Positions 11,157 to 59,295 of a DNA stretch of 59,295 nt are shown piece by piece. The DNA is from an uncultured Peptostreptococcaceae bacterium (GTDB taxonomy: Bacteria; Bacillota; Clostridia; Peptostreptococcales; BM714). The notes beneath the pieces were generated by a model that saw only the letters and a list, made by a program, of their open reading frames with translations, did not search any database and had not been told where the DNA came from. A program made the position numbers and the translations under genes. Where the stretch lies: positions 1 through 59,295 of the forward strand of contig CAZEHH010000003.1 of NCBI GenBank assembly GCA_964512505.1, read 5' to 3'. How positions within the stretch are numbered: the stretch's first letter is position 1; every line of letters begins with the position of its first letter.

Positions 11157-11215
11157 AACATCACCCAGCTTCTATAGTATGAACATAATCATTATATCAG
11201 ATTGAATGCAACTTT

Positions 11216-11249: not shown

Positions 11250-11258
11250 AGATTCGCC

Positions 11259-14823: not shown

Positions 14824-14848
14824 AATCGTTCCTCCTTGTAAAAAAAAT

Positions 14849-14874
14849 AAGGTCAGATATTTTCATCTGACCTT
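14849..14874 (-). terminator. intra-operon terminator/attenuator between the binding-protein gene and the ATPase gene
   Basis: aaggtcagat-attttc-atctgacctt gives a 10-bp stem. The minus-strand reading is followed by ATTTTTTTT. Confidence 0.75.
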
Positions 14875-14907
14875 ATTATAAACCATTTTCGCATCATTAA
14901 CTACAAT

Positions 14908-44068: not shown

Positions 44069-45517
44069 TCAGGCTTGCTTTGAATGCAAATCGTCTATTG
44101 TTTTTAGCAAAATCGCTTTTGCTATGCCCGGATCGGCTTTCCCGGATGTCTTCCTCATTATTTGACCTATGAGGGATTGCAGAGCCTTTTCTTTCCCTGA
44201 AAGGTAGTCTTCAACGACCTTTGGCATTTGTCCGACTGTTTCAAGCGCAAGGCTTGAAAGGTAGTCTTCATCCTTTATCAATCGCAAATCGTCTCTTTCG
44301 ATTATTAAATCAGGGGAAAGATTTTCTTTCCACATCTTTTCTATAACTTTTTTTGCCAACGTATTATTGATTGTTCCTAAGAAAATCAAGTCGGCAAGCC
44401 GTGCGAAATCATCACTTGTGAAAGGTATCCGGGCATCTTCGCCCTCTTTTGACAGAAGCCTTGTTATGTCTGTCATCAGTATATTTGCTGCCGTCTTCGG
44501 GGACTTGACTTTTTTTGCGGTCATGTCGAAATAATCCGAAAGATATTTGCTTGATACTAATTGTTCCGCATCATATACGGTCAACTGATAGTCTTTTATA
44601 TATTTGGCTTTTCGTTCATCCGGAAGTTCGGGCAGTGATTGCCTCATTTCTTCAACAAAAGAGTCTCCGATGATTATAGGCATCAAATCGGGATCCGGAA
44701 AATATCTGTAGTCGTGTGCGTCTTCCTTCGTTCTCATTGAAACCGACTTGCCCGCCGACTGCTCCCATCTTCTTGTTTCCTGAACTACGGCCCCACCCGA
44801 TTCAATCAATTTGATTTGACGCAAAGTTTCGTTTTCAATAGCCTTTGAAATGGAAACGAATGAATTCAGGTTTTTCATTTCCGTTCGTGTGCCAAGCTTA
44901 TTTTCGCCTTTTTTTCTTACAGAGAGGTTTACATCGCACCTGAGTGAGCCTTCGTTCATCCTGCAGTCTGAAACCCCGACATAAAGAAGAATTGCGCGAA
45001 GCTTCTGCACATACGCCTTTGCCTCCTCGGCGGAACGGATATCCGGCTCCGATACGATTTCTATCAGCGGAACCCCGCATCGGTTGTAATCAACCAGCGA
45101 ACCGCCTTCCGAGTCGTGGACAAGCTTTCCTGCATCCTCTTCGATATGAATTCTTGTTATTCCAATTCGCTTTGACTTTCCCTTGACTTCAATCTCTACA
45201 TGGCCGGAATGGCAAAGAGGCAAGTCGTATTGTGAAATTTGATATGCTTTGGGCGAATCGGGGTAAAAATAATTTTTCCTGTCCTGTTTTCCAATTCTCG
45301 TAATCTCGCATTTCGTCGCCAATCCCGAAAGAACAGCATACTCCACCACCTGTTCATTCAGAACAGGCAGTGAGCCTGGGAGTCCCAGGCATACCGGGCA
45401 ACATTGGGTGTTGGGCTTTGCTCCAAATGAAGTTCTGCATCCGCAAAATATCTTTGTTTCGGTTTTCAGCTCAACATGAACCTCAAGGCCAATCACAATT
45501 TCATAATCGTCATTCAT
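44069..45517 (-). CDS. gatB: Asp-tRNA(Asn)/Glu-tRNA(Gln) amidotransferase subunit B (ATG at 45517 overlaps the gatA stop in ATGAATGA)
   Basis: MNDDYEIVIGLEVHVEL... is the canonical GatB N-terminus. A YqeY-like C-terminal domain is present. The track ORF extension to 45583 lies inside gatA. Confidence 0.94.
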   Translation of the reverse strand: MNDDYEIVIGLEVHVELKTETKIFCGCRTSFGAKPNTQCCPVCLGLPGSLPVLNEQVVEYAVLSGLATKCEITRIGKQDRKNYFYPDSPKAYQISQYDLPLCHSGHVEIEVKGKSKRIGITRIHIEEDAGKLVHDSEGGSLVDYNRCGVPLIEIVSEPDIRSAEEAKAYVQKLRAILLYVGVSDCRMNEGSLRCDVNLSVRKKGENKLGTRTEMKNLNSFVSISKAIENETLRQIKLIESGGAVVQETRRWEQSAGKSVSMRTKEDAHDYRYFPDPDLMPIIIGDSFVEEMRQSLPELPDERKAKYIKDYQLTVYDAEQLVSSKYLSDYFDMTAKKVKSPKTAANILMTDITRLLSKEGEDARIPFTSDDFARLADLIFLGTINNTLAKKVIEKMWKENLSPDLIIERDDLRLIKDEDYLSSLALETVGQMPKVVEDYLSGKEKALQSLIGQIMRKTSGKADPGIAKAILLKTIDDLHSKQA

Positions 45518-46952
45518 CAAATCCACCTCTTTCATATGCATGAGCGGCACGCAATATTGACGCCTCGTCAAATGCTTTTCCAATCAACTGCATTCCGATA
45601 GGCAAGCCGTCTTTATCGAATCCGCAATTCATCGACAGTCCCGGCAAGCCCGCTATATTTACGGGGACTGTGTATATGTCACCCATGTACATTTCTATCG
45701 GGTTTTCACTTTTTGACCCAAACGGATATGCCGCAGTCGGAGCGGTAGGGGACAGGATAAGATCAAAAGTCTTGAACAAATTGTCAAACTCGGCTTTTAT
45801 CAAGCTTCTTACCTGTTGCGCCTTTTTATAATAGGCATCATAGTATCCCGAACTCAAAGCGTATGTCCCAAGCAATATTCTTCTTTTAACCTCTTTTCCA
45901 AAACCTTTGCTCCTTGCTTCCTTGTATAGTTCATCGAGGTTGAAATCCCCCTCGGGCCTGAATCCGTACTGTATGCCGTCAAATCGGGAAAGGTTTGACG
46001 ACGCCTCCGCAGATGAAATAATATAATACGCGGGAAGAGCATGTTTTACGCTCGATATTTCGACTTCTTCCACAGAAGCTCCCATTTTTCTAAAATTTTC
46101 AGCCGCCGCCAGAACCGCGCTTTTTACCTCGGGGGCGATCCCCTCGTCAAAGTAATTCTTAGGCAAAGCTATCCTCATACCCTTTACATCCCTGTCCAGA
46201 GATTCCATGAAATCTTCATCTTCCATTTTCACAGAAGTGGAATCCTTTTCGTCAAAACCGCACAAGACATTCATCACGTATGCCAGGTCGCTTGTGCTTC
46301 TTGCGAAAGGACCGATTTGGTCAAGAGACGAGGCAAAAGCTATCAATCCGTACCTCGAAATCCTTCCATACGTCGGCTTGAGCCCTAAAACTCCGCAAAA
46401 GCTAGCCGGCTGCCTTATTGACCCTCCTGTATCCGATCCCAATGCGAACAATGCCTGTTTTGATGCAACAGCCGCCGCCGACCCTCCCGAGCTTCCTCCC
46501 GGCACCCTGGAAAGGTCATGAGGATTCTTTGTGTTCTGGTAATAGGAATTCTCAGTGGTCGAACCCATTGCGAACTCATCCATGTTCAGTTTTCCAAGCA
46601 CTACGGCATCCGCATCCGAAAGAGTTTCAACAACGCTTGCATTGAACGGCGATTTATATTTTTCAAGCATTCTCGAACCGCAGGTGGTCGGCATTTCGAC
46701 AGTGCAAATATTGTCTTTCAGAGCCATCGGAATACCCGCAAGCACTCCAACATCCAACCCGTCAGATATTTTTTTATCTATCCTCTCGGATTTTTCCAAT
46801 GCTTTAAAATTGTCCACATATAAATAAGCCGATATATCCCTGTCCTTTTCATTTATGCGTGAAAGATACTCTTTTGTTATTTCAACTGAAGATATTTCTT
46901 TTGACAAGAGAGCCTTTCTCATTGTCATTATATCCATATCGATAATTTTCAT
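45510..46952 (-). CDS. gatA: Asp-tRNA(Asn)/Glu-tRNA(Gln) amidotransferase subunit A (ATG at 46952 after GGAGGGGTG)
   Basis: Amidase signature GGSSGGSAAAVA and LGSDTGGSIRQPASFCG. Confidence 0.95.
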   Translation of the reverse strand: MKIIDMDIMTMRKALLSKEISSVEITKEYLSRINEKDRDISAYLYVDNFKALEKSERIDKKISDGLDVGVLAGIPMALKDNICTVEMPTTCGSRMLEKYKSPFNASVVETLSDADAVVLGKLNMDEFAMGSTTENSYYQNTKNPHDLSRVPGGSSGGSAAAVASKQALFALGSDTGGSIRQPASFCGVLGLKPTYGRISRYGLIAFASSLDQIGPFARSTSDLAYVMNVLCGFDEKDSTSVKMEDEDFMESLDRDVKGMRIALPKNYFDEGIAPEVKSAVLAAAENFRKMGASVEEVEISSVKHALPAYYIISSAEASSNLSRFDGIQYGFRPEGDFNLDELYKEARSKGFGKEVKRRILLGTYALSSGYYDAYYKKAQQVRSLIKAEFDNLFKTFDLILSPTAPTAAYPFGSKSENPIEMYMGDIYTVPVNIAGLPGLSMNCGFDKDGLPIGMQLIGKAFDEASILRAAHAYERGGFDE

Positions 46953-46980
46953 TTTCACCCCTCCTTGCATTCTGTTTGCG

Positions 46981-49074
46981 CTATATGCTTTGTGGAACAT
47001 AAAAACAATTTTCCTTTTTAACCGGAGCGTTCTTTAAAACTTCTTCTACCGGCAAAGAAGGTTTTACTTGATCTTTTCTGAATACATTGTTGTTGTCAAT
47101 GATATAGGAAAGAGGGTCCACATCTCCCATTTCGACTGAATTCAATTGATTTGCAAAAGCGATTATGTCTGTCAGGTTTTTTGCCAGCTCGGCTCTTTCA
47201 TCATTTTCAACATTGAGTTTGGCAAGATTCGCGATGTGCTCAAGCATTTCTTCGGCTATCGCATCTTCCCTTCCCCCATCGCTAATTTCAGAAAGCGCGA
47301 CCAGCAAGTCGAGATCGATCAGCTGATTTGCGGAAACCTTTGAAGGTGTATCGACCATAGGGCAGGATGCATCCCTCAATTTGGGGAATGCTATGACTTC
47401 CCTTATGTTGGGGGCTCCCGCAATTATCATTATCAACCTGTCCAAACCGAATGCAAATCCTCCATGAGGCGGAGTTCCGTAATCGAATGCCTTAAGAAGA
47501 AATCCGAATCTTTCCTTTGCAACCGCAGGATCAAAACCAAGAAGCTCAAATATCTTTGACTGTATTTCGCTTTGATGGATTCTTATGCTTCCGCTTCCGA
47601 GCTCTATTCCGTTTAAAACCACATCATAGGATTTCGCCCTGACGTCCCCGGGTTTTGTCTTCAGAAGTTCAATGTCTTCATCGTTGGGCATAGTGAAAGG
47701 GTGATGCATCGCAATGTACCTTTTTTCGTCCTCTGACCATTCCAGCAAAGGAAAATCGGTTACAACGGCAAAAGCGAATTTGTTTTTATCCCTCAAACAC
47801 AAAATATCTGCAATTTCCAATCTTAAACTCCCGAGAATATTTCTTGCTTTTTCTTTATCGTCTGCGCTGAAAATAATCATGTCTCCCGGTTTGGCCTCTA
47901 ATTTCGCAATGATTCTTACCATGTCTTCTTCTGAAAAATATTTGGTAAGGACAGACCTCAAACTTCCATCAGGCTCAATTGCAATCCAAGCCATGCCTTT
48001 GCCTCCGAATTGAAATGCTTTTTCTGTAAGATGCTCTATTTGAGTCCTTGTAAGTTCATTCCCGCCTTTGATGCACAAGCCTTTTACTATGCCTCCACGA
48101 TCGACCACATTCCGGAAAACCTCAAAGCTGCATACCTTCATTATTTCGGTCAAGTCAACCATCGGCATGTCGAATCTTAAATCCGGCTTATCGAATCCAT
48201 ACTTGTCCATTGCTTCTTCATAGGTCATTCTCGTGAAAGGCGTCTTAATATCTATTCCCTTCGTCTTTTTCAAAATTTTCGCGAACAATTCTTCAAGCAT
48301 TCCTATTACATCCTCTTGATCGACAAAACTCATTTCCATGTCTATCTGGGTGAATTCAGGCTGACGGTCCGACCTTAGATCTTCGTCCCTGAAGCATTTT
48401 GCCACTTGATAATACTTGTCGACACCTGAAACCATAAGCAATTGCTTGTATATTTGGGGGGATTGCGGCAATGCATAAAAAGTCCCCTTTGAAACCCTGC
48501 TGGGAACAAGGTAATCCCTTGCCCCCTCCGGTGTGCTCTTTGTAAGAATAGGGGTTTCTATCTCCATGAAATCTTTTTCCTCGAAATAATTTCTTATTGA
48601 AGAAAGCACCGACTGCCTTGTTTTAAGATTGTTCAGCATTTCCGCCCTTCTCAAATCCAGATACCTGTACTTGAGCCTCAATTCTTCCCTCACTTCCACG
48701 TATTCGTCAAGAATGAAGGGAGGCGTCTTGGACTTGTTGAGAATGCGAAGCTCAGTTGCCCTCACATCTATTGTGCCTGTTGGCAGGTTCACGTTTACCG
48801 TTTCTTCGTCACGCCTTTCCAGCCTGCCTGAAACAGCTACGACATATTCATTCCTTATGGATTCGCCTTTTGCGAAATTTTCATTTCCAATGCTTCCCGC
48901 GTCTAATACAACCTGCACAATTCCGGAAACATCCCGCAAATCGATAAAAATTACTCCGCCAAGGTCCCTTCGTCTCTGCACCCATCCCATTACCGTAACA
49001 GTTTCCCCAATATTGTTCTCTGTCAGCTTCCCGCAATAGTGAGTTCTTTTCATACCCTTCATTGAATCGCCCAT
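46981..49074 (-). CDS. aspS: aspartyl-tRNA synthetase (bacterial type) fused in frame to a full-length GatC domain (residues ~603-697, nt 47268..46984)
   Basis: A single 697-aa ORF. The AspRS body (RTHYCGKL, class II motifs FRDEDLRSDRQPEFTQID, GGFAFGLDRL) ends near ...QLIDLDLLVALSE. It continues without a stop into DAIAEEMLEHIANLAKLNVENDERAELAKNLTDIIAFANQLNSV...NVFRKDQVKPSLPVEEVLKNAPVKKENCFYVPQSI, which is GatC-like end to end. Confidence 0.85.
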   Translation of the reverse strand: MGDSMKGMKRTHYCGKLTENNIGETVTVMGWVQRRRDLGGVIFIDLRDVSGIVQVVLDAGSIGNENFAKGESIRNEYVVAVSGRLERRDEETVNVNLPTGTIDVRATELRILNKSKTPPFILDEYVEVREELRLKYRYLDLRRAEMLNNLKTRQSVLSSIRNYFEEKDFMEIETPILTKSTPEGARDYLVPSRVSKGTFYALPQSPQIYKQLLMVSGVDKYYQVAKCFRDEDLRSDRQPEFTQIDMEMSFVDQEDVIGMLEELFAKILKKTKGIDIKTPFTRMTYEEAMDKYGFDKPDLRFDMPMVDLTEIMKVCSFEVFRNVVDRGGIVKGLCIKGGNELTRTQIEHLTEKAFQFGGKGMAWIAIEPDGSLRSVLTKYFSEEDMVRIIAKLEAKPGDMIIFSADDKEKARNILGSLRLEIADILCLRDKNKFAFAVVTDFPLLEWSEDEKRYIAMHHPFTMPNDEDIELLKTKPGDVRAKSYDVVLNGIELGSGSIRIHQSEIQSKIFELLGFDPAVAKERFGFLLKAFDYGTPPHGGFAFGLDRLIMIIAGAPNIREVIAFPKLRDASCPMVDTPSKVSANQLIDLDLLVALSEISDGGREDAIAEEMLEHIANLAKLNVENDERAELAKNLTDIIAFANQLNSVEMGDVDPLSYIIDNNNVFRKDQVKPSLPVEEVLKNAPVKKENCFYVPQSI

Positions 49075-49520: not shown

Positions 49521-50492
49521 CTATTTTGCCGTCATATCGACTATTATGTCCTCAATGTCTATTTCGCTTTCCAGCATGCCGTTTTCGATAAGAAATTCTT
49601 GCGTCTTAACCAAATCTTCCATATCGTTTTCGCTTATTTGCGGATTGAAATCGTACCATGCAAACATCGTCTTTACTGCTTCAACATCTATGTTGGTCTC
49701 TTCAGCCGTCATTGCGAAGGTATCGTCAGGATTGTCCTCCATATATTCAAGACTTTTTCTATGTACGTCCATATATGTCTGAACAACTTCGGGATACTTT
49801 TCAATCATTTCACCGCTTGTAGCGATGACGATTGTAGCGTCCAGAAGGCCTTCGCCAGTCTCGATAACCCTGTTTCCCGCTTCAAGAGCAATAGTAACCG
49901 CAGGTCCCGCAACCAATGCCGCATCTGCATTTCCGGAGGAAAGAGCTGCCATTCCGTCTCCTATTCCCATGTTTATGAATTCAACATCGTCCATTGCCAT
50001 TCCGTTTTCCACCAATGCCCCCAAAAGCAATTGATGAAGGATCGTCCCCTTTGGCCCAACTATTTTTTTCCCTTCCAAGTCTTTTATCCCGACTATCGAA
50101 TCATCCTTGGCCATGATTGTAAAAGCCTTTGGAGCCCTGCTGTAAATTCCGATTATTTTAACATCCACGCCATTCGCAGCGGCAAGAATTGCAGAAGTGC
50201 CTCCCAGGGCATTGCAGAAATCCAACGAGCCTGATGCAAGAGCTTCGGTCATCTTGGAACCTTGCGTTATTTCGGGAAATTCCACTTCCATTCCTTCTTC
50301 GCCAAAAGCATCTTCAAAGAGCAGTTTATTCTTTTCAACTATTGACGGCACATTAAGGGGCAATTTCACATATGAAATATTGACCTTTTCTTTTGCCGGA
50401 ACTTCAGTTGTTTCACCCGCACCGCTTGCGCAACCCGATAGAACAGCCATAACCATAAGCATTACCGCCATAAACAATGATAACTTTTTCAT
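49521..50492 (-). CDS. NMT1/THI5-like (SsuA/TauA-type) ABC substrate-binding lipoprotein (start at the ATG after AAAGGAGGG; the track ORF extends to 50522)
   Basis: MKKLSLFMAVMLMVMAVLSGC lipobox, with an SBP body resembling the aliphatic sulfonate/nitrate/HMP family. Confidence 0.82.
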   Translation of the reverse strand: MKKLSLFMAVMLMVMAVLSGCASGAGETTEVPAKEKVNISYVKLPLNVPSIVEKNKLLFEDAFGEEGMEVEFPEITQGSKMTEALASGSLDFCNALGGTSAILAAANGVDVKIIGIYSRAPKAFTIMAKDDSIVGIKDLEGKKIVGPKGTILHQLLLGALVENGMAMDDVEFINMGIGDGMAALSSGNADAALVAGPAVTIALEAGNRVIETGEGLLDATIVIATSGEMIEKYPEVVQTYMDVHRKSLEYMEDNPDDTFAMTAEETNIDVEAVKTMFAWYDFNPQISENDMEDLVKTQEFLIENGMLESEIDIEDIIVDMTAK

Positions 50493-50581
50493 AAAACCCT
50501 CCTTTTCCCCTGATAATTTCAATTCACACCAATTTTCATTCCGTTTTTAAATGTTCCTCCTCCTTTTCAGGTTAATGTTTT

Positions 50582-51346
50582 TTATTGCGCCACAGCTAAT
50601 TTATTCTTGGAATCCATGATGGTGTTCATGGCTTTTTCCCTTAGTCTTGAAAACTTAGCCGAGTGAATGTCCCTTGGATAGTTTTCCTTAATATCAATAT
50701 CTTCCATTATTTTTCCATCATCTATTACAATGAGTCTTTGACCCAGGTAAAGAGCCTCTTCAATATCATGTGTGACAAATACTATTGTTTTTTTGCACGA
50801 ATTGAAAATATGGATCAATTCGTCTTGCAGAATTTTTCTATTGTATGCGTCAAGCGCTCCCAAGGGCTCATCCATCAGTATTACATCCGGTTCGTAACAC
50901 AGGGTTCTTCCCAAAGCAACCCTTTGCGCCATGCCTCCGGATATCTGGCTCGGATATGCGTCTTTAAACCCATCCAAACCAAGGATTTCAAGATATTTGT
51001 TTACGGTGCTTTCGACTTTTCCACTGTCATTTTCGTTTTCGAGTGAAAAAGCCATGTTTTGTTTTACGGTCAACCACGGCATCAGGCGCGGTTCTTGGAA
51101 CACAATGGACATTTTGGGGCATTTCCCGCACTCTCTGCCATTTTCCATATACAGGACTTCTCCGCCGCTTTTTTCTTCAAGCCCGCATAAGATTCTCAAA
51201 AGCGTAGTTTTCCCGCAACCGCTCTTTCCCACAATAGTCACAAAGCTTTGTTTTTCCACAAAAAGATCCATGCCCTCAAAAACCGGCACTTCCTTTTTTT
51301 TAAGCATAAAAATCTTTGATAAGTTCCTGATTTTTATCCCTGTCAT
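50582..51346 (-). CDS. ABC transporter ATP-binding protein (NitT/TauT family)
   Basis: Walker A GKSGCGKTT, signature ISGGMAQRVAL, Walker B ILMDEP. The ATG at 51346 follows GGGAGGGTG. Confidence 0.9.
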   Translation of the reverse strand: MTGIKIRNLSKIFMLKKKEVPVFEGMDLFVEKQSFVTIVGKSGCGKTTLLRILCGLEEKSGGEVLYMENGRECGKCPKMSIVFQEPRLMPWLTVKQNMAFSLENENDSGKVESTVNKYLEILGLDGFKDAYPSQISGGMAQRVALGRTLCYEPDVILMDEPLGALDAYNRKILQDELIHIFNSCKKTIVFVTHDIEEALYLGQRLIVIDDGKIMEDIDIKENYPRDIHSAKFSRLREKAMNTIMDSKNKLAVAQ

Positions 51347-52091
51347 GATTTCCACCCTCCCACATCAAGAGTCTGTTGGTCGCTTTCAGGAAAAAATAAT
51401 CTATTCCGCAACCCAATGTGCCTATAACAATTATCCCTACAAAAATTATGTCTATCCTTGACAATTGTTCTGCTTCAATTATCATGTATCCAATGCCCGA
51501 AGAAGCCGCAATTAGTTCGGCTCCCATCAGAGACCTCCAACTGTATCCAAGTCCAAGCTGCATTCCCGCCAATATTGACGGTAGAGCCTGGGGAAGAATG
51601 ATTTTAATCAAGGTTTGCCATCTTGTGAACCCGTACGTCCTTCCGACTTCAACAAGCCTGTTGTCGCATCCTGAAATGCCGCTTACCGTATTTATGAATA
51701 TTGGGAAGAAAGTCGCTAAAATTATCACCGCGATTTTTGAGGTTTCACCGATTCCAAACCACAGTATGAGGAGCGGTATCATGGCTATGGGAGGTATGTG
51801 CCTCACAAACTCAAGAAAGGGAGACAGATATTCAAATGTTTTTTTGTTGAGTCCGACAAGCACCGCCATTGGAAATGCGATTAAAAAGGTTATGACAAAG
51901 CCTGAAAGAACCCTGAAAAGGCTTATGCCCAAATGTCTTATCAGTATCCCATTCTCAGCTAATGCCAATCCGGTGTTAATCACTTTGACCGGATGCGGAA
52001 CTATATATGTATTGAACCATTCCATTTCGGAACCTACCGCCCACAATAGCAAAATTGCCAGCGGAAAAACAATTCCCCTGTATTTTTTCAA
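51300..52091 (-). CDS. ABC transporter permease (NitT/TauT family); probable TTG start at 52091
   Basis: A six-TM BPD-type permease. The track ORF N-terminus (52092..52160) reads through an intrinsic terminator and has no RBS. AGGGAG (rc of 52101-52106) precedes the TTG and gives MKKYRGIVFPLAILLLW. Confidence 0.85.
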   Translation of the reverse strand: MKKYRGIVFPLAILLLWAVGSEMEWFNTYIVPHPVKVINTGLALAENGILIRHLGISLFRVLSGFVITFLIAFPMAVLVGLNKKTFEYLSPFLEFVRHIPPIAMIPLLILWFGIGETSKIAVIILATFFPIFINTVSGISGCDNRLVEVGRTYGFTRWQTLIKIILPQALPSILAGMQLGLGYSWRSLMGAELIAASSGIGYMIIEAEQLSRIDIIFVGIIVIGTLGCGIDYFFLKATNRLLMWEGGNHDRDKNQELIKDFYA

Positions 52092-52136
52092 AAATACTTT
52101 CTCCCTTCGATTCGCCTTATTTTTTTCAAATATAAA

Positions 52137-52156
52137 AGCCTTCCAAAAGGAAGGCT
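52137..52156 (-). terminator. intrinsic terminator inside the leader of the NMT1-type ABC operon
   Basis: The RNA reads AGCCUUCC-UUUU-GGAAGGCU followed by UUUAUAUUUG. Confidence 0.8.
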
Positions 52157-52311
52157 GCATGGTCTATTGTCGCAATGGCAAAATTCTTCGCCGTATACGC
52201 AAGGCTATGTCCTACTCCCTTTTCGAATCAGAATACTCTTTTTCGCAAGGTCATATTCTATTTTCCCAAATATGCGAAGAAGGCTCTCCGCAACTCTGGA
52301 ATATCAATTTC
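52157..52311 (-). promoter_or_regulatory. unclassified structured 5' leader (riboswitch- or attenuator-like) upstream of the leader terminator
   Basis: It lies between a near-consensus promoter and the terminator. Mutually exclusive pairings can be drawn (see findings). I recognise no match to any riboswitch class. Confidence 0.5.
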
Positions 52312-52459: not shown

Positions 52460-52918
52460 ATGGATTTCAAATTCAAACTTGTCGAGAAAGAAATTCAGCC
52501 GACTTTGTCCATAAGGACAACAGCCGCTGTTGAAGACTTGCCGATTGTGCTCTCAAAAGCTTATGGTAAAATAATGAACTACTTGTCGGAAATAGGCGAA
52601 TATCCCTCCGATGCTCCTTTTGCAGCCTACTACAACATGGACATGAAGAACCTCGACATCGAAATAGGATTTCCTGTAAAACAAAAGCTGCCCTTGAGAA
52701 ATTACATTGAGCCAAGCGTATTGCCTAAAGGTACGTATGCACAATGCATTCATGTCGGACCCTACAGTGAAATAGGTTCGGCCTACGACGCTTTGATGGA
52801 ATGGATGGATGCGAATGAATACAGATCGAACGGTGTCGCCTATGAGTTTTATCTTAATGACCCTGATAATGTACCGGAGGAAAAGCTTGAAACCCGCATA
52901 ATGTTCCTTATAGAATAA
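52460..52918 (+). CDS. GyrI-like small-molecule-binding domain protein (AraC effector-binding/SOUL-like fold)
   Basis: 152 aa. RBS GAAAGGAGG. The typical GyrI-like pattern is present (IQPTLSIRTTAAVEDLP..., GPYSEIGSAYDALMEWM, EFYLNDP). Confidence 0.75.
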   Translation: MDFKFKLVEKEIQPTLSIRTTAAVEDLPIVLSKAYGKIMNYLSEIGEYPSDAPFAAYYNMDMKNLDIEIGFPVKQKLPLRNYIEPSVLPKGTYAQCIHVGPYSEIGSAYDALMEWMDANEYRSNGVAYEFYLNDPDNVPEEKLETRIMFLIE

Positions 52919-53020: not shown

Positions 53021-53063
53021 AAGGCAAAAGGAATTTTGTTTTCTTTGAAATTCCTTTTGCCTT
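53021..53063. terminator. long perfect hairpin between convergent genes
   Basis: aaggcaaaaggaattt-tgttttctttg-aaattccttttgcctt gives a 16-bp stem. Confidence 0.8.
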
Positions 53064-53065: not shown

Positions 53066-53410
53066 TTATGCTTTAATTTCATCTTTCTTTTGAACATAGT
53101 CCTTGGGGTTAGGCGCTTTTACAATAAAAAGCTCCAGAGTCTCTCCATGTTTGTTCATTCCGTTCATCTTTACGTTGCAGGGGATATTTATAATGCTACC
53201 TCTTTCATATTCTATGCTTTCCTGACCGGCCAGGCTCAGCGATACAATCCCCCTTGCAACAATCATATATACATTCGAATTTGAGTAATGCTCCGGAAAA
53301 CCTTCCCCTTTTTTAAAAACCATGTGGTTCAAGTGAATATTCTCATCATTCACTATTCTCTCTATGGTCTTTTCATTTCCTGTATAAAATTCATATATTT
53401 TTTCCAACAA
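53066..53410 (-). CDS. cupin domain protein (re-started at the TTG at 53410; the track ORF extends to 53512)
   Basis: Cupin core GEGFPEHYSNSNVYMIVARGIVSL...GSIINIPCNVKMNGMN. GGAGGTG (rc of 53416-53422) lies 5 nt upstream of the TTG. The hcp terminator lies inside the longer track ORF. Confidence 0.7.
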   Translation of the reverse strand: MLEKIYEFYTGNEKTIERIVNDENIHLNHMVFKKGEGFPEHYSNSNVYMIVARGIVSLSLAGQESIEYERGSIINIPCNVKMNGMNKHGETLELFIVKAPNPKDYVQKKDEIKA

Positions 53411-53458
53411 ATCGTCACCTCCATCTGATTCCTCAAGTATTGATGAATTTTTGAAAAA

Positions 53459-53490
53459 TTCGGGAGCCGCGAACAATCCCGGCTCCCGAA
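53459..53490 (-). terminator. rho-independent terminator of hcp
   Basis: The RNA reads UUCGGGAGCCG-GGAUUGUUCG-CGGCUCCCGAA followed by UUUUUC. It starts 24 nt after the hcp stop. Confidence 0.8.
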
Positions 53491-53513
53491 TATGATCCAG
53501 CAATCCATTCAAT

Positions 53514-55160
53514 TTATGCGAAGAACTGCTCCATATCTTCCTCTACGCTGTTTATGCCGTTTATTCCAAATGTCTCTACAAGCACTTTTGCCACATTTGG
53601 CGACAGGAATGCCGGCAGTGTCGGTCCAAGCTTGATATTCTTTACTCCAAGGTAAAGAAGCGCAAGCAATACTATTACCGCCTTCTGCTCATACCATGCT
53701 ATATTGTATGCTATCGGCAAGTCGTTGATGTCATTGAGTTCGAATACTTCTTTTAGCTTGAGGGCTATGACTGCCAACGAGTATGAGTCGTTGCACTGCC
53801 CGGCGTCGAGGACTCTCGGAATCCCACCGATGTCCCCAAGATCAAGCTTGTTGTAACGGTATTTTGCGCAACCGGCCGTAAGTATAACCGTATCCTCAGG
53901 CAATTTTTCCGCAAACTCCGTATAGTAGGACCTTGACTTCATTCTTCCGTCACAGCCTGCCATCACAAAGAATTTCTTGATGGCGCCGGATTTGACCGCA
54001 TCCACGACCTTGTCCGCCAATGCGAATACCTGCGCGTGCGCGAATCCGCCGACTATGGTTCCATTTTCAATTTCAACAGGCGGATCGAGTTTCTTGGCCT
54101 GCTCGATTATCTCTGAGAAATCCTTCATTCCATTTTCATCGGCAACAATATGCTTGCATCCCGGATATCCTGCTGACCCGGTTGTGTAGATCCTTTCGAT
54201 TTGATCCTCTTTTGGCGGTACAATGCAATTCGTAGTAAAGAGAATAGGTCCGTTGAATGTTGTAAATTCCTCTTTTTGCTTCCACCAGGCATTTCCGTAG
54301 TTGCCAAAGAAATGGTCATACTTCTTGAATGCCGGATAGTAGTTTGCTGGAAGCATTTCGCCATGGGTATATACATCCACTCCCGTTCCCTTTGTCTGCT
54401 CGAGCAGCTGCTCCATGTCTTTCAAATCGTGACCCGTGATAAGTATTGCAGGGTTCTTTCCTACACCTATGTTTACTTCCGTAATCTCAGGATTTCCGTA
54501 TGTTTCAGTATTTGCGGCATCGAGAAGAGCCATTACGTCAACACCGAATTTCCCTGTTTCAAGAGTCAAGGCTACAAGCTCGTCAGCGCTCAATGTGTCA
54601 TCCAGCGTAGATGTCAGAGCCTTGGTTATGAAACCGTAAACATTTTTGTCTTCTTTTCCAAGATTGAATGCATGCTCGGCATATGCGGCAATTCCCTTGA
54701 GTCCGTACGTTATAAGTTCTCTAAGAGAACGGACATCCTCATTTTCGGTTGCAAGAACTCCAACCTGCACCGAATCAGCTTTTGTCTGCATTGCGGCGGC
54801 TGTATCTGCAAACCAAGTGGCAGCATCATGCATGTCAACCAATGAAACGCCTTTTTCCTTTAGTTCTTCCTTCATTTCTTCTCTTAACGCAAGCCCTTCC
54901 CTGATTTTTGCCCTGAAAGCTTCATCATCGAAGTTTGCGTTCGTTATAGTCATGAAAAGCCCTGTCATTGTAAAATGGTCCGCTTTAGGAAATTCAAGGC
55001 CTGCTTTCCGGCCTTCCTCTTTCACCAAGGCAATCCCCTTAAGTGTGTAAATCATAAGATCCTGAAGGTTTGCAACGTAATCCGGCTTTCCGCAAACCCC
55101 TTTGATTGTACAACCTGTTCCTTTTGCCGCTTCCTGGCATTGATAACAAAACATGCTCAT
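53514..55160 (-). CDS. hcp: hydroxylamine reductase / hybrid-cluster protein
   Basis: 548 aa. N-terminal [23 protein letters not shown] cubane-binding motif, with typical Hcp sequence throughout. Confidence 0.96.
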
Positions 55161-55229
55161 TATTATTCCTCCTTTTTCAATTTGTTGTTATTCATGCGTC
55201 AAGCATATAACAATCGCAGTCTGTTTTCG

Positions 55230-55243
55230 GTATCTCAAGTTAC
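55230..55243 (-). promoter_or_regulatory. Crp/Fnr-type (HcpR-like) operator candidate GTAAC-TTGA-GATAC upstream of hcp
   Basis: An imperfect palindrome 17 nt upstream of TGTTATAT (extended -10-like). That element begins exactly 52 nt before the hcp ATG. The same box is found at 58538..58551. Confidence 0.6.
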
Positions 55244-55252: not shown

Positions 55253-55495
55253 TCAATAGTCTATACCGGCAGCTTTTACGTTGGCCGGGTCGAAAGCATG
55301 GCAAGGCGTAACGCCGTGAACCATGCCGCATTTGGAACACTTTTCCTCAAATTTCGACATTTCGAACGTTTCATTGCATCCTCCGCATACAACATTTAGA
55401 GGCATGGGCATATGCTGTTTTGAAAACCCCATCATCCTTACCTTGTCGACAGTTTCTTTGCCTGTCTGAAAATTTCCCGAACATCCTTCATGCAT
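55253..55495 (-). CDS. small Cys-rich zinc-ribbon-like protein, function unknown
   Basis: 80 aa. Strong RBS AAGGGGGA. CGGC-N13-CSKC plus two further Cys. It is the last gene of the four-gene operon. Confidence 0.7.
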   Translation of the reverse strand: MHEGCSGNFQTGKETVDKVRMMGFSKQHMPMPLNVVCGGCNETFEMSKFEEKCSKCGMVHGVTPCHAFDPANVKAAGIDY

Positions 55496-55511
55496 TGTTT
55501 GTCCCCCTTTC

Positions 55512-56519
55512 TCAGATTACCTTTTCCAATATTTCGCCTTTTCTCAAGTTGCTTCTCAGCGTGCCTATTATCTTGTCGATTCTGTCAAGCTCAATCAGCA
55601 TTCTTCTCTCTTCCTCGCTTGTTTCTATTACTTTGTCTATTCTGCCATTTTTTATGACCAGCCTTTTCCCCGCCATAAGAGCCAGGCTGGGATCGTGCGT
55701 TGCCATAAGAACTATCTTCTCTTCATTAACAAGAAGATTCAAAGCTTTTTTCCTGTCTATGCCAGCATTCTCAATCTCATCTATCAAAACTATCGGTGAT
55801 GTGCTCAGTATTGCCGTATCCGCTATCATCAGCGCCCTGGACTGCCCTCCGCTCAGGCTGGTAATGGGAGTGTCCAATTCGAATTTTTCTCCCGCCAAGT
55901 GATTTGCCGCATCCACTATCCTTAAAATAATCTCCTGCTCGTTTTCAACCATACGGCTTTGGGCATGCAATTCCAGAAATTCGCTTACGGTCAAATCCAT
56001 GACAAAATTCATGTTTTGGGACAATTGAGCGACAAGCTTGTTGGCTGAAGACAGCCTCCACCTGCTGTCGGGCCTCTTCCCATTTATCAAAATCACTCTT
56101 TCAGTAGGGGTATCCTTGTTCGCCACCCATTCTATGTCCGCCAACAGGCGGCTTTTGCCGGATCCGGTCGGACCCACTATTGTAACAATCTCGCTTCTGT
56201 TAATTGTTATTTGTTCAAAATTTTCTTTATTCCCGTCCTTGTCGAAGCCCGCCACTATGGTCAGAGAATCTACTCGCTCATCGCCTTTGATACCCAAAAA
56301 CTCAAGCATTTGTCGAATGTACATCAAAAAATCCACTTTTATCTTCTCGGGATCTATTGCCCAATCCTCTATTTCTTCTTCAGTGAAATGATCCAAGTAT
56401 TGCTCTAAAGTGCTGTCTTCATACCCTTTGATATCTAAATTATTGTTTTGGAAAAACGAGATGGCAAAAGGATATTTGTTTTCAATTTCACTTATCTTCA
56501 TCTTTTCAAATTCTCTCAT
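55512..56519 (-). CDS. soluble ABC-type ATPase with an N-terminal DUF1858-like domain (no cognate permease)
   Basis: Walker A GPTGSGKS, signature LSGGQSRAL, Walker B VLIDEIE, H-loop ATHD. The N-terminal ~100 aa (KISEIENKYPFAISFFQNNNLDIKGYEDSTLEQYL) resembles DUF1858/ScdA_N. The ATG at 56519 lies 1 nt after the upstream stop. The track ORF starts at 56537. Confidence 0.8.
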   Translation of the reverse strand: MREFEKMKISEIENKYPFAISFFQNNNLDIKGYEDSTLEQYLDHFTEEEIEDWAIDPEKIKVDFLMYIRQMLEFLGIKGDERVDSLTIVAGFDKDGNKENFEQITINRSEIVTIVGPTGSGKSRLLADIEWVANKDTPTERVILINGKRPDSRWRLSSANKLVAQLSQNMNFVMDLTVSEFLELHAQSRMVENEQEIILRIVDAANHLAGEKFELDTPITSLSGGQSRALMIADTAILSTSPIVLIDEIENAGIDRKKALNLLVNEEKIVLMATHDPSLALMAGKRLVIKNGRIDKVIETSEEERRMLIELDRIDKIIGTLRSNLRKGEILEKVI

Positions 56520-56520
56520 A

Positions 56521-57222
56521 TTAATCATCACCTTCACTCAATTTGATTTTTCTGATGTTCCCCATCTGATAATCTTCTCCAATTCTTTTTTCTCCAAGAC
56601 AGTATGAGCATAGCGCGGAAGGCATCGAAAACCTGAGCTCTTTTCCTTTGACTGTTTCTATATCCTCTTTTTCATCATACAGTAGAGTGCTGAGTTCATA
56701 CGCACCCTGACCCGTCAGTCCGTTTATATGCATCGTTGTCGCTTTTGAGTTTACAGAACGGACCTTTGATGCGAACACTTCCCTTTCTGCCTGTGACACT
56801 ATGTCTCCCTTTGTTATCACAACTATATCCGCTGTCTTAAGCATTGGTCCGATTTTCTTGGGAGTGTTTATTCCACTCAGATTGTCAATTACGCATACCG
56901 CTTTCACGTCCCTGATATACGGAGAACAGCGATTGCATAGTCCTGCGCTCTCTGTAATCAAAACGTCAAGCTTCTCTTTCCTTCCCCATTGCACGACCTC
57001 TTCTATATTGCTTACAAAGTAATGATCCGGGCAAAGGGAGCCTGACAACCCTTTTTTCACAGGAACCCCCGCTTTTTTATATAGAAGGTCGTCATCGGTA
57101 TAAAGGCAGTCGAATTTAACCACCCCTACCTTTAGCTTTCGCTGCTTCATTGCATGTATAGTCTTTAATATTATGGATGTTTTTCCTGAAGATGGGGGCC
57201 CTGAAATTGTAATCAGATTCAT
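56521..57222 (-). CDS. G3E-like (HypB/UreG/CobW-related) P-loop NTPase, putative metallochaperone
   Basis: MNLITISGPPSSGKTS Walker A, ESAGLCNRC in place of the G3E ExxG/Cys metal motif, TKGD in place of NKxD, and C-terminal CSYC. Its ATG overlaps the upstream stop (ATGA). Confidence 0.75.
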   Translation of the reverse strand: MNLITISGPPSSGKTSIILKTIHAMKQRKLKVGVVKFDCLYTDDDLLYKKAGVPVKKGLSGSLCPDHYFVSNIEEVVQWGRKEKLDVLITESAGLCNRCSPYIRDVKAVCVIDNLSGINTPKKIGPMLKTADIVVITKGDIVSQAEREVFASKVRSVNSKATTMHINGLTGQGAYELSTLLYDEKEDIETVKGKELRFSMPSALCSYCLGEKRIGEDYQMGNIRKIKLSEGDD

Positions 57223-58466
57223 ATTTCCACCCCTCCCGCCGCTTCTCCAAACAGCTTGTCGCATTTTTCAATCAGTCGTCCAATATCGTTTTTGTTTATA
57301 TAATCCCATCCCAGCCACATGTACTTGTGCCCACCGTCAATCATGTTGTCCACATCGGGATTTACGCTTGGGAATCTGCCGTTGTGAGAAAGTATCTCCC
57401 CGACTTCCTTCGATGCAAAGAAATCGACAAACGGTTTCAAATCATGCGCTTTGCTCCTCTTGCTGAGGAGGAAGATTGGGCTTATGATTGCACCGTCGCT
57501 GGGCCATACCGCCTTCATCGGCCCGCCGTTTCCGGTCATCTTGGTGAAAAAGTAGGGCATTATTGTTACAATCGGCTTTTCCGCCTTCCTGATATGCGAT
57601 TTCACCATCTCCGAAGGATGCATGCTCTTCAAAAGACTTCTGCCCAGTTTTTCCACTCCTGTTTCACCATATCGCGCATTTATGTTGAGCAGTATCGCAT
57701 TGAACAAGTCAAAATCTCCAATTGGAAGACTCACCTTGTTTGCAAATTCGTCGCTCAATATGTCCTGCCAGCTTGCGGGGATTTTTCTTTCTCCCAGTTC
57801 CTCAGTGTTTACCAAAAATACAGCCGGAACCACTCCTATCATGGAATAGTGCTTGTCCGGGTCTCTCAGATCAATATATCCATTTTCAAAATCCTTGTTG
57901 TAATGTTCAAATCCGGTGATATCCTCAAATGCATTTTCCGATTTGTATTTGCCTATAAGCTCCTTGTCGAAAAACAGGTCGAAACCCGCCGAAATGAATA
58001 TATCCGCCAGAACATCCGATGAATCTGTGGATTCAATTGATCTTTTCAGCCAATCGACTCCCATCGATGCGGCTTTCAAATCATAACCTACCGTTTTTTT
58101 TATGCTTTCGCCATTTTTCTTCATCCAACCCTGAAAAGCCTCCATCAGCGGCACCCTTACCGGACACGGCAACACTCCTTCAATCCGCAAATCAGCATCT
58201 TTCAGGACGCCATTGGATTCCAACCCTCCGTCTGATTCGCCGATTCCGTTTTCAATGGCTTCAACAAGCTGTTTTACAAACGTGTTTTCATTTATTTTTT
58301 TTATTCTCAAAGCGGTCTCCAGTGTGACCGAGCCGCCGAATGCTTTCCTTTGTTTTTCGTCGCGTATATTTTCAAATCCTATTGACGAAAGCAAATCGAT
58401 CGCTTCCTTATGGTTGTTTGTGATTTCCAACAAGGTATCGTTCAAATCAAAATACATTTTTTCCAT
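57219..58466 (-). CDS. cytoplasmic fusion of a DUF1858 domain and a periplasmic-binding-protein-like (Fe3+/polyamine-type SBP) domain
   Basis: 415 aa with no signal peptide. The N-terminal ~65 aa (LNDTLLEITNNHKEAIDLLSSIGFENIRD...VTLETALRIKKIN) is DUF1858-like. The remainder resembles type II SBPs (LRIEGVLPCPVRVPL...). Confidence 0.7.
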   Translation of the reverse strand: MEKMYFDLNDTLLEITNNHKEAIDLLSSIGFENIRDEKQRKAFGGSVTLETALRIKKINENTFVKQLVEAIENGIGESDGGLESNGVLKDADLRIEGVLPCPVRVPLMEAFQGWMKKNGESIKKTVGYDLKAASMGVDWLKRSIESTDSSDVLADIFISAGFDLFFDKELIGKYKSENAFEDITGFEHYNKDFENGYIDLRDPDKHYSMIGVVPAVFLVNTEELGERKIPASWQDILSDEFANKVSLPIGDFDLFNAILLNINARYGETGVEKLGRSLLKSMHPSEMVKSHIRKAEKPIVTIMPYFFTKMTGNGGPMKAVWPSDGAIISPIFLLSKRSKAHDLKPFVDFFASKEVGEILSHNGRFPSVNPDVDNMIDGGHKYMWLGWDYINKNDIGRLIEKCDKLFGEAAGGVEI

Positions 58467-58537
58467 TCTTGCACCTCTCTTTATAATGATTTTTCATCAC
58501 TTCCGGTTCATCATAACACCGTCCGCCGCATATAACC

Positions 58538-58551
58538 GTATCCTGTGTTAC
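58538..58551 (-). promoter_or_regulatory. second HcpR-like operator candidate GTAAC-ACAG-GATAC upstream of the four-gene operon
   Basis: Same half-sites as the hcp box. It lies 19 nt upstream of TGTTATGAT, which again begins exactly 52 nt before the ATG at 58466. Confidence 0.6.
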
Positions 58552-58564
58552 TAAAATAAAAAAA

Positions 58565-58592
58565 TTGCATCGGTAATTTTTCACCAATGCAA
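58565..58592 (-). terminator. terminator of the Crp/Fnr regulator gene
   Basis: The RNA reads UUGCAUUGGU-GAAAAAUU-ACCGAUGCAA (one G-U pair) followed by U7. Confidence 0.75.
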
Positions 58593-58627
58593 TCCAATAA
58601 TTCGTTTCGTTGATTTTAAATTTTTCT

Positions 58628-59295
58628 TCAAATGTAAGATTTTAAGGCTTCAATATCCATTATCTGAAACGAAGACCTGTAAAAGTCAATTATTCCCTCA
58701 TCCTTCATCTTGATTATTTCCCTCGAAAGCGACGGTCTTGATACATACAAAAACTCCGCCAGTTCATTCCTTTTCATTGGAATCATGAATCTGTCCCCGC
58801 CTGCGATACTTCGTTGCTCAAGCAAATATGCACATGCCTTAGCCCTTATGCTTTTCATGGAAAGATATTTTATTTTCTTTTCAAGCCCGAGAGCTTTCTG
58901 CGAAACAATTCTCAGCATGTTTTGAATCAATTGCCTGTGCCCTATGCACATGTTGCGACAATTGCCGATGATTTTTTCCGGGGTTATGAACATGACCTTG
59001 CAGCCTGTTGCCGCAATCACTGACACTCCCCATTTGTCACTGCTTGAAAAAGCAAAAACCTCCCCGAATATGCTGTTCTCTTTCAACTTGGCCATTATCA
59101 CCCTGTCCCCCGCCGCATTGTCTTTTGCTATTGTTACCTCGCCTTCCACAATAATGCCTATCCCGGTAAACCGGTCACCTTCGGTTACAATACTTTCTTT
59201 CCTTTGGAAGGATGCTATCTGGGGCCTGAAGCACATTAAAACACTATTCAGCTCGCCTTCTTCAATCCCTTTGAACAATTCGACTTTCTTTAATG
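58628..59295 (-). CDS. Crp/Fnr-family transcriptional regulator (HcpR-like), 5' end outside the window
   Basis: cNMP-binding-like beta-barrel and C-terminal HTH (RNELAEFLYVSRPSLSREIIKMKDEGII). The frame stays open upstream of the track start (..LKKVELFKGIEEGEL) to the window edge. Confidence 0.85.
   Translation of the reverse strand, partial: LKKVELFKGIEEGELNSVLMCFRPQIASFQRKESIVTEGDRFTGIGIIVEGEVTIAKDNAAGDRVIMAKLKENSIFGEVFAFSSSDKWGVSVIAATGCKVMFITPEKIIGNCRNMCIGHRQLIQNMLRIVSQKALGLEKKIKYLSMKSIRAKACAYLLEQRSIAGGDRFMIPMKRNELAEFLYVSRPSLSREIIKMKDEGIIDFYRSSFQIMDIEALKSYI

Follow-up and report, generated by a model that had tools for sequence, protein, structure and literature searches.

What can a set of genes that looks like the soluble half of an ABC transporter be doing when it encodes nothing that could sit in a membrane, and when it stands directly upstream of hcp, the gene for the hybrid cluster protein (Hcp)? 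The locus that raises this question belongs to an uncultured Peptostreptococcaceae bacterium (GenBank assembly GCA_964512505.1, contig CAZEHH010000003.1, positions 1 to 59,295), and the whole of this stretch of 59,295 nucleotides (nt) is called the window hereafter. Four genes on its minus strand, which we name G1 to G4, lie between the gene for a Crp/Fnr-family regulator and hcp. We give even chances to the proposition that their products are a cytoplasmic, permease-free machine of the HcpR regulon, which, under nitric oxide (NO), would spend GTP and ATP on supplying metalloproteins, whether damaged or freshly synthesised, with a metal, the best candidate being iron or an Fe-S fragment. The components of the locus are the following (lengths in amino acids, aa).

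58466..55253, minus strand: four-gene unit G1 to G4; all four open reading frames (ORFs) confirmed at these coordinates
57219..58466, minus strand: G1, 415 aa, DUF1858 plus SBP_bac_6 (Pfam)
56521..57222, minus strand: G2, 233 aa, Cys-rich GTPase of the G3E class (Pfam cobW domain)
55512..56519, minus strand: G3, 335 aa, soluble ABC-type ATPase with an N-terminal helical domain of ~95 aa (Pfam ABC_tran)
55253..55495, minus strand: G4, 80 aa, Cys/His protein (conserved motifs; sub-threshold HypA match)
58628..59278, minus strand: Crp/Fnr-family regulator of HcpR2 type, 216 aa (Pfam cNMP_binding, E=3.4e-13, and HTH_Crp_2, E=2.4e-13)
53514..55160, minus strand: hcp, hybrid cluster protein, 548 aa (NF003658, hydroxylamine reductase, E=8.5e-262; Pfam Prismane, E=1.2e-183)

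An earlier account of this DNA, made from its letters alone (the sequence-only reading), had described four translationally coupled genes between a Crp/Fnr regulator and hcp, and the junctions agree with it in every detail. The stop codon of G1 overlaps the start of G2 in ATGA (57222..57219); the G2 stop TAA (56523..56521) is followed by the single base 56520 and the G3 ATG at 56519; and the G3 stop TGA (55514..55512) by a 16-nt spacer (55511..55496), with the Shine-Dalgarno-like AAGGGGGA, and the G4 ATG at 55495. The start of G2 at 57222 is backed by homologues of 233 aa, one database protein being identical, and for G3 an alternative start is possible at the GTG at 56537. The hcp gene follows downstream on the same strand at a distance of 92 nt from G4.

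The same account had seen in G1 the fusion of a DUF1858-like domain to the fold of a substrate-binding protein (SBP) without signal peptide, and both Pfam assignments lie above their cut-offs: DUF1858 (PF08984) covers aa 7-64 (E=2.8e-10, 40.6 bits, or 43.5 bits for the isolated domain, against a cut-off of 32.2) and matches the structure 2fi0 of the Protein Data Bank (PDB) with E=4e-4, while SBP_bac_6 covers aa 153-393 (E=2.9e-79). It had also assigned the N-terminus of the iron-centre repair proteins ScdA/RIC to the DUF1858 family, which was mistaken: ScdA/RIC carries Pfam ScdA_N, and the G1 domain matches ScdA_N at E=0.033 only. An AlphaFold2 (AF2) model of G1, with a predicted local distance difference test (pLDDT) value of 73, has its best Foldseek matches in P5PA, FbpA, FutA and AfuA (E ~1e-11); against the targets 6wce, 3kn8, 3od7, 1mrp and 8c4y the template modelling (TM) scores by target, TMt, are 0.64-0.71, and the modelled protein has the two-lobe class II SBP fold. 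Three residues, C101, D202 and H283, are each kept in at least 94% of 116 representatives of the family. By position among the secondary structures of the model, C101 would correspond approximately to His9 of FbpA, and Y305-F306 to Tyr195-Tyr196.

G2 belongs to the cobW/HypB/UreG domain family of Pfam (E=2.8e-14, 53.5 bits, cut-off 20.7) and has the signatures of G3E proteins, namely GPPSSGKT, ITESAG (a Walker B of the Glu type) and ITKGD, all invariant in 31 orthologues. Equally invariant are seven cysteines (C39, C64-P-D-H67, C96-x2-C99, C110 and C205-x2-C208), so that the Cys motifs LCPDH, ESAGLCNRC and CSYC, on which the sequence-only reading had based its comparison with G3E proteins, hold throughout the orthologues. 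Its sequence matches in the PDB are UreG (4hi0, 5xkt) and HypB (2hf8), and in the HMMER alignment C64 falls on the Cys of the ECH motif of Methanocaldococcus (M.) jannaschii HypB 2hf8, giving G2 a Cys/His site between Walker A and Walker B; this Cys of the ECH motif is presumably the metal ligand Cys95. Neither equivalog model claims the protein (TIGR00073 hypB, 52.7 against a cut-off of 121.2 bits; TIGR00101 ureG, 36.1 against 204.2 bits). In 30 species the identity of G2 is 79-92%, against 60-74% for G1, and where G1 has drifted to ~28% G2 stays far better conserved, scoring 317-341 bits against the 233-aa query (A2, L089, L092, L093; L numbers denote loci in our collection); the A7 members are 64% identical among themselves in G2. 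Because G2 is so unusually constrained while G1 drifts, its conservation suggests that it is the interaction hub of the system.

G3 has the ABC_tran domain (E=6e-16, 59.7 bits, cut-off 25) and all the motifs of an ABC ATPase in invariant form: GPTGSGKS (Walker A), LSQN (Q-loop), LSGGQ, VLIDE (Walker B) and ATHD (H-loop). It matches 130 NCBIfam families; of the 25 best, none is a SufC model and none attains its cut-off. The ATPase assignment of the sequence-only reading is therefore firm, while the second DUF1858-like domain that it placed at the N-terminus is weakly supported. The first ~95 residues are poorly conserved; in isolation they match DUF1858 with E=0.16 (12.5 bits, cut-off 32.2), sub-threshold matches occur in 9 of 31 orthologues (best E=0.0053), and a local hhalign comparison with the DUF1858 domain of G1 gives 23 in-register columns (P=6.9e-4, probability 27%), whereas full-length profiles of the two give no usable signal (probability 1.6%).

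G4, the 80-aa Cys-rich protein, shows an N-terminal M-H-[E/D]-G-C, a pair of knuckles of the form CxxC...CPxC and T-P-C-H near the C-terminus. Eight residues, H2, C5, C37, C40, C53, C56, C65 and H66, are the same in all 30 homologues, which come from several phyla; at least 90% of these have M1, and 27 have E or D at position 3, the others G, A or Q. It thus has the Met-His-Glu start and the CxxC...CxxC pattern of HypA-type proteins, and some public records name its homologues HypA, while some sources call them 'rubrerythrin'. The zinc ribbon by which it had been characterised gives a sub-threshold match: Pfam HypA is hit in its zinc ribbon only (E=5e-3, 17.2 bits against a cut-off of 28.9), and a PDB sequence search returned generic zinc-ribbon noise only. 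Foldseek, given the confident AF2 model (pLDDT 88.8), returned no PDB structure at E < 1, and HypA was not among its matches. On the Pfam score and the Foldseek result we rejected G4 as a HypA homologue.

Could the four proteins nevertheless be pieces of a transporter? Public annotation would have it so, since it calls the products 'ABC transporter substrate-binding protein', 'GTP-binding protein' and 'hypothetical protein', as the sequence-only reading had expected of automatic annotation. A Kyte-Doolittle scan found no transmembrane segment or signal peptide in any of G1-G4: no 19-residue window exceeds 1.6, as against 39 such windows in a true permease nearby, and G1, whose N-terminus is the hydrophilic DUF1858 domain, reaches a maximum of 1.08. 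To see the genes in other organisms, a pattern scan was made of 185,579 species genomes, which found a G1 relative in 239, the best 80 of these being analysed, and a metagenome scan seeded with distant G2 sequences yielded 80 further loci; fractions of genome loci given below count those with enough contig. No conserved permease was found beside the genes in 76 genome and 80 metagenome loci. Clustering of all other neighbours in the 76 genome loci brought out no further conserved partner, the largest extra cluster being an unrelated fused ABC exporter in 8 loci. With neither a permease partner nor an exported SBP (signal peptide or lipobox), and no permease conserved in ~160 related loci, the sequence-only reading was right to say that this is not an importer, and the public annotation is misleading as to transport. 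A defender of transport may still argue that G1-G4 are orphan soluble parts of a true ABC importer, for iron for example, whose permease is encoded elsewhere, and may point to the SBP_bac_6 and ABC_tran domains, the FbpA-like fold of G1 and database names of its relatives such as 'ABC-type Fe3+ transport system substrate-binding protein'. We regard this as extremely improbable: not only does G1 begin with a cytoplasmic domain, but its relatives without DUF1858 are likewise unexported; permeases found nearby bring their own SBP and ATPase; within the 25 best of 130 NCBIfam families G3 reaches no curated model of a transporter ATPase; and between the SBP-fold gene and the ATPase gene there always stands a translationally coupled G3E GTPase gene.

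If not transport, what ties the four genes to hcp? The window contains the box GTAACNNNNGWTAC (GTAAC-N4-GATAC) exactly twice, at 58551..58538 and 55243..55230, where shuffled sequences give an expectation of 0.04 boxes and 1 shuffle in 100 reached two. The control elements read from the sequence are these.

58538..58551, minus strand: HcpR2-type operator GTAACACAGGATAC before G1, differing in one base from the published GTAACnnnnGTTAC
58510..58518, minus strand: extended -10-like element TGTTATGAT for G1, by sequence inspection, 19 nt after the box
55230..55243, minus strand: HcpR2-type operator GTAACTTGAGATAC before hcp, differing in one base from the published GTAACnnnnGTTAC
55204..55212, minus strand: extended -10-like element TGTTATATG for hcp, by sequence inspection, 17 nt after the box
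58562..58595, minus strand: terminator-like hairpin, a 15-pair stem followed by a T-run, consensus match only

The box centre lies 78.5 nt from the start codon of G1 and 76.5 nt from the ATG of hcp, which corresponds to about -41.5 and -39.5, respectively, relative to the predicted -10 elements of the form TGTTAT(G/A), and the putative terminator appears to part the regulator gene from the G1-G4 promoter. That both promoters share one box in one geometry had been claimed beforehand; but for one base in each copy, the box is the operator predicted for the clostridial HcpR2 branch (Rodionov et al., PMC1274295). Regulators of this branch have Arg-Pro in the recognition helix where CRP has R180-E181 (PMC1274295), and the regulator of the window, aligned to CRP by inspection, has S-R-P-S-L-S-R, that is, Arg then Pro. 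HcpR controls hcp and NO tolerance in Clostridioides (C.) difficile (PMC12915319). The predicted operators thus support the assignment of G1-G4 and hcp to one HcpR regulon.

Comparison across genomes extends this regulatory link well beyond the window. The order and strand of G1-G2-G3 are kept in all 76 genome loci where the contig allows, with nearest G1 matches that are 95% (L001) and 83% (L002) identical. G4 comes after G3 in 46 of 69 loci; in nine others (L004, L005, L006, L023, L025, L035, L043, L044 and L056) it is absent and hcp directly follows G3, with a 4-nt overlap in L004, so G4 must be dispensable, or encoded elsewhere, in some lineages. A Crp/Fnr gene stands no more than 700 nt upstream in 19 of 68 loci. 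Downstream on the same strand, hcp is found in 38 of 62 loci (in 29 within 400 nt), and there is none within 8 kb in the remaining 24. The box, with at most one mismatch, precedes G1 in 55 of 74 loci and hcp in 29 of 38; the loci, 1.18 Mb in all, contain 104 such sites, 84 of which lie upstream of G1 or hcp, and many loci that bear the box have no hcp nearby. The co-occurrence with hcp and HcpR, which had been proposed as a check across Firmicutes, holds for the HcpR-type box and in part for hcp, and the module is not confined to Firmicutes.

Complete G1-G4 sets, found by way of G4 homologues, occur in five further phyla. Deferribacter abyssi (L081) has a YgbA_NO ('nitrous oxide-stimulated promoter') gene after G4 (8287-8619), and Spirochaeta isovalerica a divergent Crp/Fnr gene beside G1-G4; the set is present in Marispirochaeta too. 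In Cloacimonadota (L084/L085) G1 is preceded, at a distance of 7 nt, by an Rrf2 gene (4599-5006); the product of this gene has C-x6-C-x4-C, its best-scoring models being those of SUF regulators and IscR, and a perfect GTAACAATGGTTAC box stands before the gene. In the Fusobacteriia locus (L086) G3 and G4 are separated by an OsmC-family gene (6587-6982), and a Mycoplasmatota genome repeats the regulator-G1-G4-hcp layout of the window identically. No hcp adjoins the genes in the loci read from Spirochaetota, Deferribacterota, Cloacimonadota and Fusobacteriota. The link is therefore one with nitrosative-stress regulation rather than with Hcp itself, hcp being a frequent but not exclusive partner.

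The operators vary among these lineages. GTAAC boxes occur in Fusobacteriia, Mycoplasmatota, Marispirochaeta and Cloacimonadota. Among loci that lack the HcpR2 box, Proteiniclasticum and one Peptostreptococcaceae locus carry GTATC-N4-GATAC (the group L002, L047, L073, L075); Lachnospiraceae loci with a divergent regulator (L027, L028, L030, L033, L049) carry GTTGTAAAAACAAC, matching the published profile of Clostridium thermocellum; and the box of Spirochaeta (L082), TTGACCTGAGTCAA, is that of the deltaproteobacterial HcpR profile. The operator before G1 changes with the regulator lineage in a way that mirrors the HcpR motif classes published in 2005. The NO-responsive link thus survives changes of regulator lineage and operator, which the link to hcp does not always do. 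Judged by these predicted operators, at least six phyla have the version of the system with DUF1858 and G4 as a member of the nitrosative-stress regulon of HcpR.

How old is the core of this system, and is it always bound to NO? An exhaustive HMMER search with G1 returned 546 representative clusters among 1.84 billion proteins, so that the SBP clade of G1 is small and distinct. Some of its relatives at 25-35% identity are without DUF1858, still have no signal peptide and keep the motifs LPCPxKVP, HPxxMxK, MPYFFAK and WPxxGA. When four of the distant G1-like genes were looked up, G2 and G3 orthologues with intact G2 Cys motifs followed in all three that had enough contig. In the 80 metagenome loci, too, G2 and G3 are adjacent wherever the contig allows and a G1-like gene adjoins them in every locus checked; the G1 partners fall into 42 that bear DUF1858, 13 with the SBP part only and 25 of a third, divergent SBP_bac_6 clade, for which the upstream gene was confirmed in the 13 of 25 loci with enough upstream sequence. 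Operons without DUF1858 have the layout TonB-dependent receptor - (UbiE-like methyltransferase) - Peripla_BP_2 - triad - FecCD - BtuD-like ATPase, the triad being G1-G2-G3, and these TonB/FecCD-type operons hold a complete type II metal-chelate importer besides the triad. Third-clade loci of this kind are L095, L097, L099, L114, L116-L120 and L137, with L089 and L093; a UbiE-like S-adenosylmethionine-dependent methyltransferase is often present, and in P0449 the methyltransferase is fused to an SBP-like domain. A cobalamin link of the importer-associated triads was considered and found unsupported, there being no Rfam riboswitch of any family in 149 kb of importer-linked loci.

Other triads lie in nif clusters (L103, about 3400-15700; L132, 1-7721; L168; L109), with NifB, NifE/N- or NifK-like Oxidored_nitro proteins, NifV-like homocitrate synthase, NifX-like, NifH, P-II and NifD as neighbours. 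No HcpR box precedes the three distant triads that were checked (L089, L092, L093). Because the triad thus occurs in importer operons and nif clusters without DUF1858, G4 or a link to NO, its basic job must be broader than Hcp maturation, and the G1-G2-G3 core is older and more general than the version with DUF1858 and G4. The G2-G3 pair is highly constrained, while its SBP-fold partner varies with context. We tentatively propose, at somewhat less than even chances, that the triad is a widespread but unrecognised machine for cytoplasmic metallocofactor trafficking: a domesticated ABC importer (SBP and ATPase, no permease) welded to a G3E GTPase, which would spend both GTP and ATP in at least three settings, namely NO-stress repair beside Hcp (with DUF1858 and G4), hand-off from imported chelates and nitrogenase cofactor assembly.

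How, then, might the quartet of the window work under NO? Each kind of part has a precedent: insertion of Ni, Co, Zn and Fe is the work of G3E GTPases, Fe-S assembly employs the soluble ABC ATPase SufC, and in E. coli RIC/YtfE and Hcp act together against damage by NO. By analogy, G2 would be the metallochaperone core and would dimerise around its Cys/His metal site as HypB and UreG do, while G3 would be a soluble ABC ATPase providing conformational work, as SufC does in SufBCD. G1 could be a domesticated clamp of ferric-binding-protein kind, holding its cargo through the candidate set Cys101/Asp202/His283, with the DUF1858 domain as an adaptor to the NO context. G4 may be a small metal-binding accessory, either a metal donor like HypA in function or a redox partner like rubredoxin, and Hcp would be a frequent partner or client. 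A physical complex of the four proteins, the identity of the metal and the clients are what we infer. Iron or an Fe-S fragment would be the most economical choice of cargo, because the fold of G1 is closest to ferric-binding proteins, because the three contexts of Hcp, siderophore-type import and nitrogenase cofactor synthesis are all iron-hungry, because G2 has two invariant CxxC pairs and because one lineage has an IscR/SufR-like regulator in the operon.

Several points weigh against this delivery of iron by G1-G4. The HypA-like N-terminus of G4 and the likeness of G2 to UreG and HypB would fit nickel as well as iron; G4 is without HypA fold and is absent from 23 of 69 loci. The metal site of FbpA (His9/Glu57/Tyr195/Tyr196) could not be mapped on G1, an hhalign comparison with an approximate FbpA sequence having aligned only 41 C-terminal columns. 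In the loci examined, the neighbours include neither a cysteine desulfurase nor a known Fe-S scaffold, and in the nif locus L103 a ModA gene directly follows G3, so that molybdate may be the cargo in that context. We know of no ABC ATPase that works with a soluble SBP-fold protein. To our knowledge, moreover, E. coli, Desulfovibrio and C. difficile carry hcp and appear to be without the module, which therefore is not needed for Hcp in general. The HcpR regulon tables of 2005 list no such operon (PMC1274295). A full-text search of the published literature found no description of the G1-G4 set, and the statement of the sequence-only reading that no function had been described for it thus stands. 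Its broader proposal, a module for Hcp or Fe-S maturation or for nitrosative stress, fares unevenly: membership of a nitrosative-stress regulon is borne out, while maturation specific to Hcp is probably too narrow.

That narrower role nonetheless deserves to be weighed. A dedicated maturase that builds or inserts the hybrid cluster [4Fe-2S-2O], playing for Hcp the part that CooC/CooT/CooJ play for CO dehydrogenase, a related enzyme, would account for the many loci in which hcp directly follows, often within 400 nt, for the single operator type that serves G1 and hcp and for the identical regulator-quartet-hcp layout in the Mycoplasmatota genome; G3E GTPases and small Cys/His proteins are, besides, typical assembly factors of metallocentres. 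Yet no hcp lies within 8 kb in 24 of 62 loci, many of which retain the HcpR box, nor next to the genes in the loci read from four other phyla; the same G2-G3 engine works in nif and importer contexts; and G1 relatives are present in 239 of 185,579 species genomes while hcp is far more widespread. A maturase may be at work in the hcp-linked loci, but this would leave the others unexplained, and as a general account we find it unlikely. Should the metal be zinc or nickel instead, G2 and G4 would reload Zn or Ni proteins after NO stress as COG0523 and HypAB do. Zn is driven out of thiolate sites by NO, the nearest relatives of G2 are UreG and HypB, both nickel GTPases, and G4 has the HypA-type M-H-E start with CxxC/CPxC knuckles, as well as the name HypA for its homologues in some public records; but none of the loci has a linked Ni enzyme or a linked transporter for Ni or Zn, the fold of G1 is closest to ferric-binding proteins, the siderophore-type importer and nif contexts point to iron or Fe-S, and G4 fails the HypA Pfam cut-off and lacks the HypA fold, all of which makes re-metallation with zinc or nickel improbable. 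Less credible again, and in our judgement very unlikely, is nucleotide-driven reductive activation of Hcp, or electron delivery to it, with G4 as a rubredoxin-like Fe(Cys)4 carrier replacing FrdX/Hcr. It draws on the lack of frdX or hcr beside hcp in the window, on the rubredoxin-like second knuckle of G4, CP[K/H]CG, and on the label 'rubrerythrin' for its homologues. Against it, control of electron transfer is not a known activity of G3E or ABC ATPases, a third of the loci are without G4, among them L004-L006 with hcp immediately after G3, none of G1-G4 has a domain for flavin or NAD(P)H, and Foldseek gives G4 no significant rubredoxin match.

Downstream of hcp, the window continues with two further features.

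53066..53512, minus strand: cupin-like gene, 148 aa (weak Cupin_2 match, E=1.7e-3)
53021-53063: terminator-like hairpin after the cupin-like gene (hairpin search)

The cupin-like gene begins 2 nt past the hcp stop codon and has homologues 3' of hcp in L002, L004 and L006, and one that precedes G1 in L040; it is probably the last gene of the transcription unit and may be a further member of the regulon. Past it lie a GyrI-like gene on the opposite strand (window 52460-52918, plus strand) and then a complete ABC importer of the NMT1/SsuA type, with SBP, ATPase and BPD_transp_1 permease (window 49521-52160, minus strand). The permease of this importer (51300-52160), the only one nearby in the window, could easily be mistaken for the missing membrane part of G1-G4; it was considered as such and rejected, for it is part of that complete set, which is unrelated to G1-G4; hcp, the cupin-like gene, the terminator-like hairpin and the opposite-strand GyrI-like gene separate it from G1-G4. 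Still further away, an ORF for aspartyl-tRNA synthetase (AspRS; window 46981-49074, minus strand; 697 aa) combines tRNA-synt_2, GAD and a C-terminal GatC in one product and overlaps the start of a GatA-type amidase gene (window 45510-47000, minus strand); this looks like an AspRS-GatC fusion within a transamidation operon.

The way in which anaerobes rebuild metal centres after NO damage is poorly understood outside RIC/YtfE, as is the supply of iron to complex clusters such as the Hcp hybrid cluster and the iron-molybdenum cofactor (FeMo-co), and the module offers four co-regulated candidate proteins that are conserved from Clostridia to spirochaetes. If a role in metal trafficking is true, a soluble SBP with an ABC ATPase and a G3E GTPase would be a new architecture among the few NTP-driven metallochaperones, thousands of annotations as 'ABC transporter substrate-binding protein' would be corrected, and there would be a handle on the NO tolerance of gut and sediment anaerobes.

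Which of the known systems does the module resemble most? With HypA/HypB and UreE/UreG it shares a G3E GTPase that has a Cys/His site between Walker A and B, a small protein with M-H-E and CxxC...CxxC and a position beside the metalloenzyme to be served; it differs in that G2 is under the equivalog cut-offs and has seven invariant Cys, G4 has 80 aa without the HypA fold, no Ni enzyme is linked, and an SBP-fold protein and an ABC ATPase are obligatory. Like SufBC2D, it has an ABC ATPase without membrane partner, cytoplasmic work on metalloclusters and induction by stress (the last two as predictions for the module), and in one lineage an Rrf2/IscR-like regulator heads the operon; unlike in that system, G3 matches no SufC model (best 25 of 130 families), no SufB/SufD or cysteine desulfurase was found among the neighbours, and the partners of G3 are an SBP-fold protein and a GTPase. 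RIC/YtfE/ScdA belongs likewise to NO-responsive regulons with hcp, has a small helical N-terminal domain of the ScdA_N/DUF1858 kind and has the same proposed work on NO-damaged iron centres; yet RIC is a single protein without NTPases, whereas the module is without hemerythrin di-iron domain and G1 has DUF1858, not ScdA_N. The ferric-binding proteins FbpA/FutA/SfuA have the same fold as the SBP domain of G1 (Foldseek E ~1e-11, TM ~0.7; Pfam SBP_bac_6), but G1 is cytoplasmic, without signal peptide or permease and only ~15% identical, and it conserves Cys101, Asp202 and His283, the His/Glu/Tyr/Tyr site not being recovered. In CooC/CooT/CooJ, finally, an accessory NTPase and small metal-binding proteins also lie beside an enzyme of the Prismane/CO dehydrogenase family; however, CooC is a MinD-type ATPase and not G3E, Hcp is without nickel, and G4 bears no relation to CooT in sequence or fold (Foldseek E=2.4, not significant). 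Because the defining features of each are wanting, the module falls outside the HypAB, UreG, Suf, RIC and Fbp families. Its parts belong to known superfamilies, while their combination, as predicted from the genes (an unexported SBP-fold protein, a permease-less ABC ATPase, a G3E GTPase and an MH[E/D]GC/Cys-knuckle protein), matches no described system that we know of or found; the module would find its place within the NTP-dependent systems for the assembly or repair of metallocentres.

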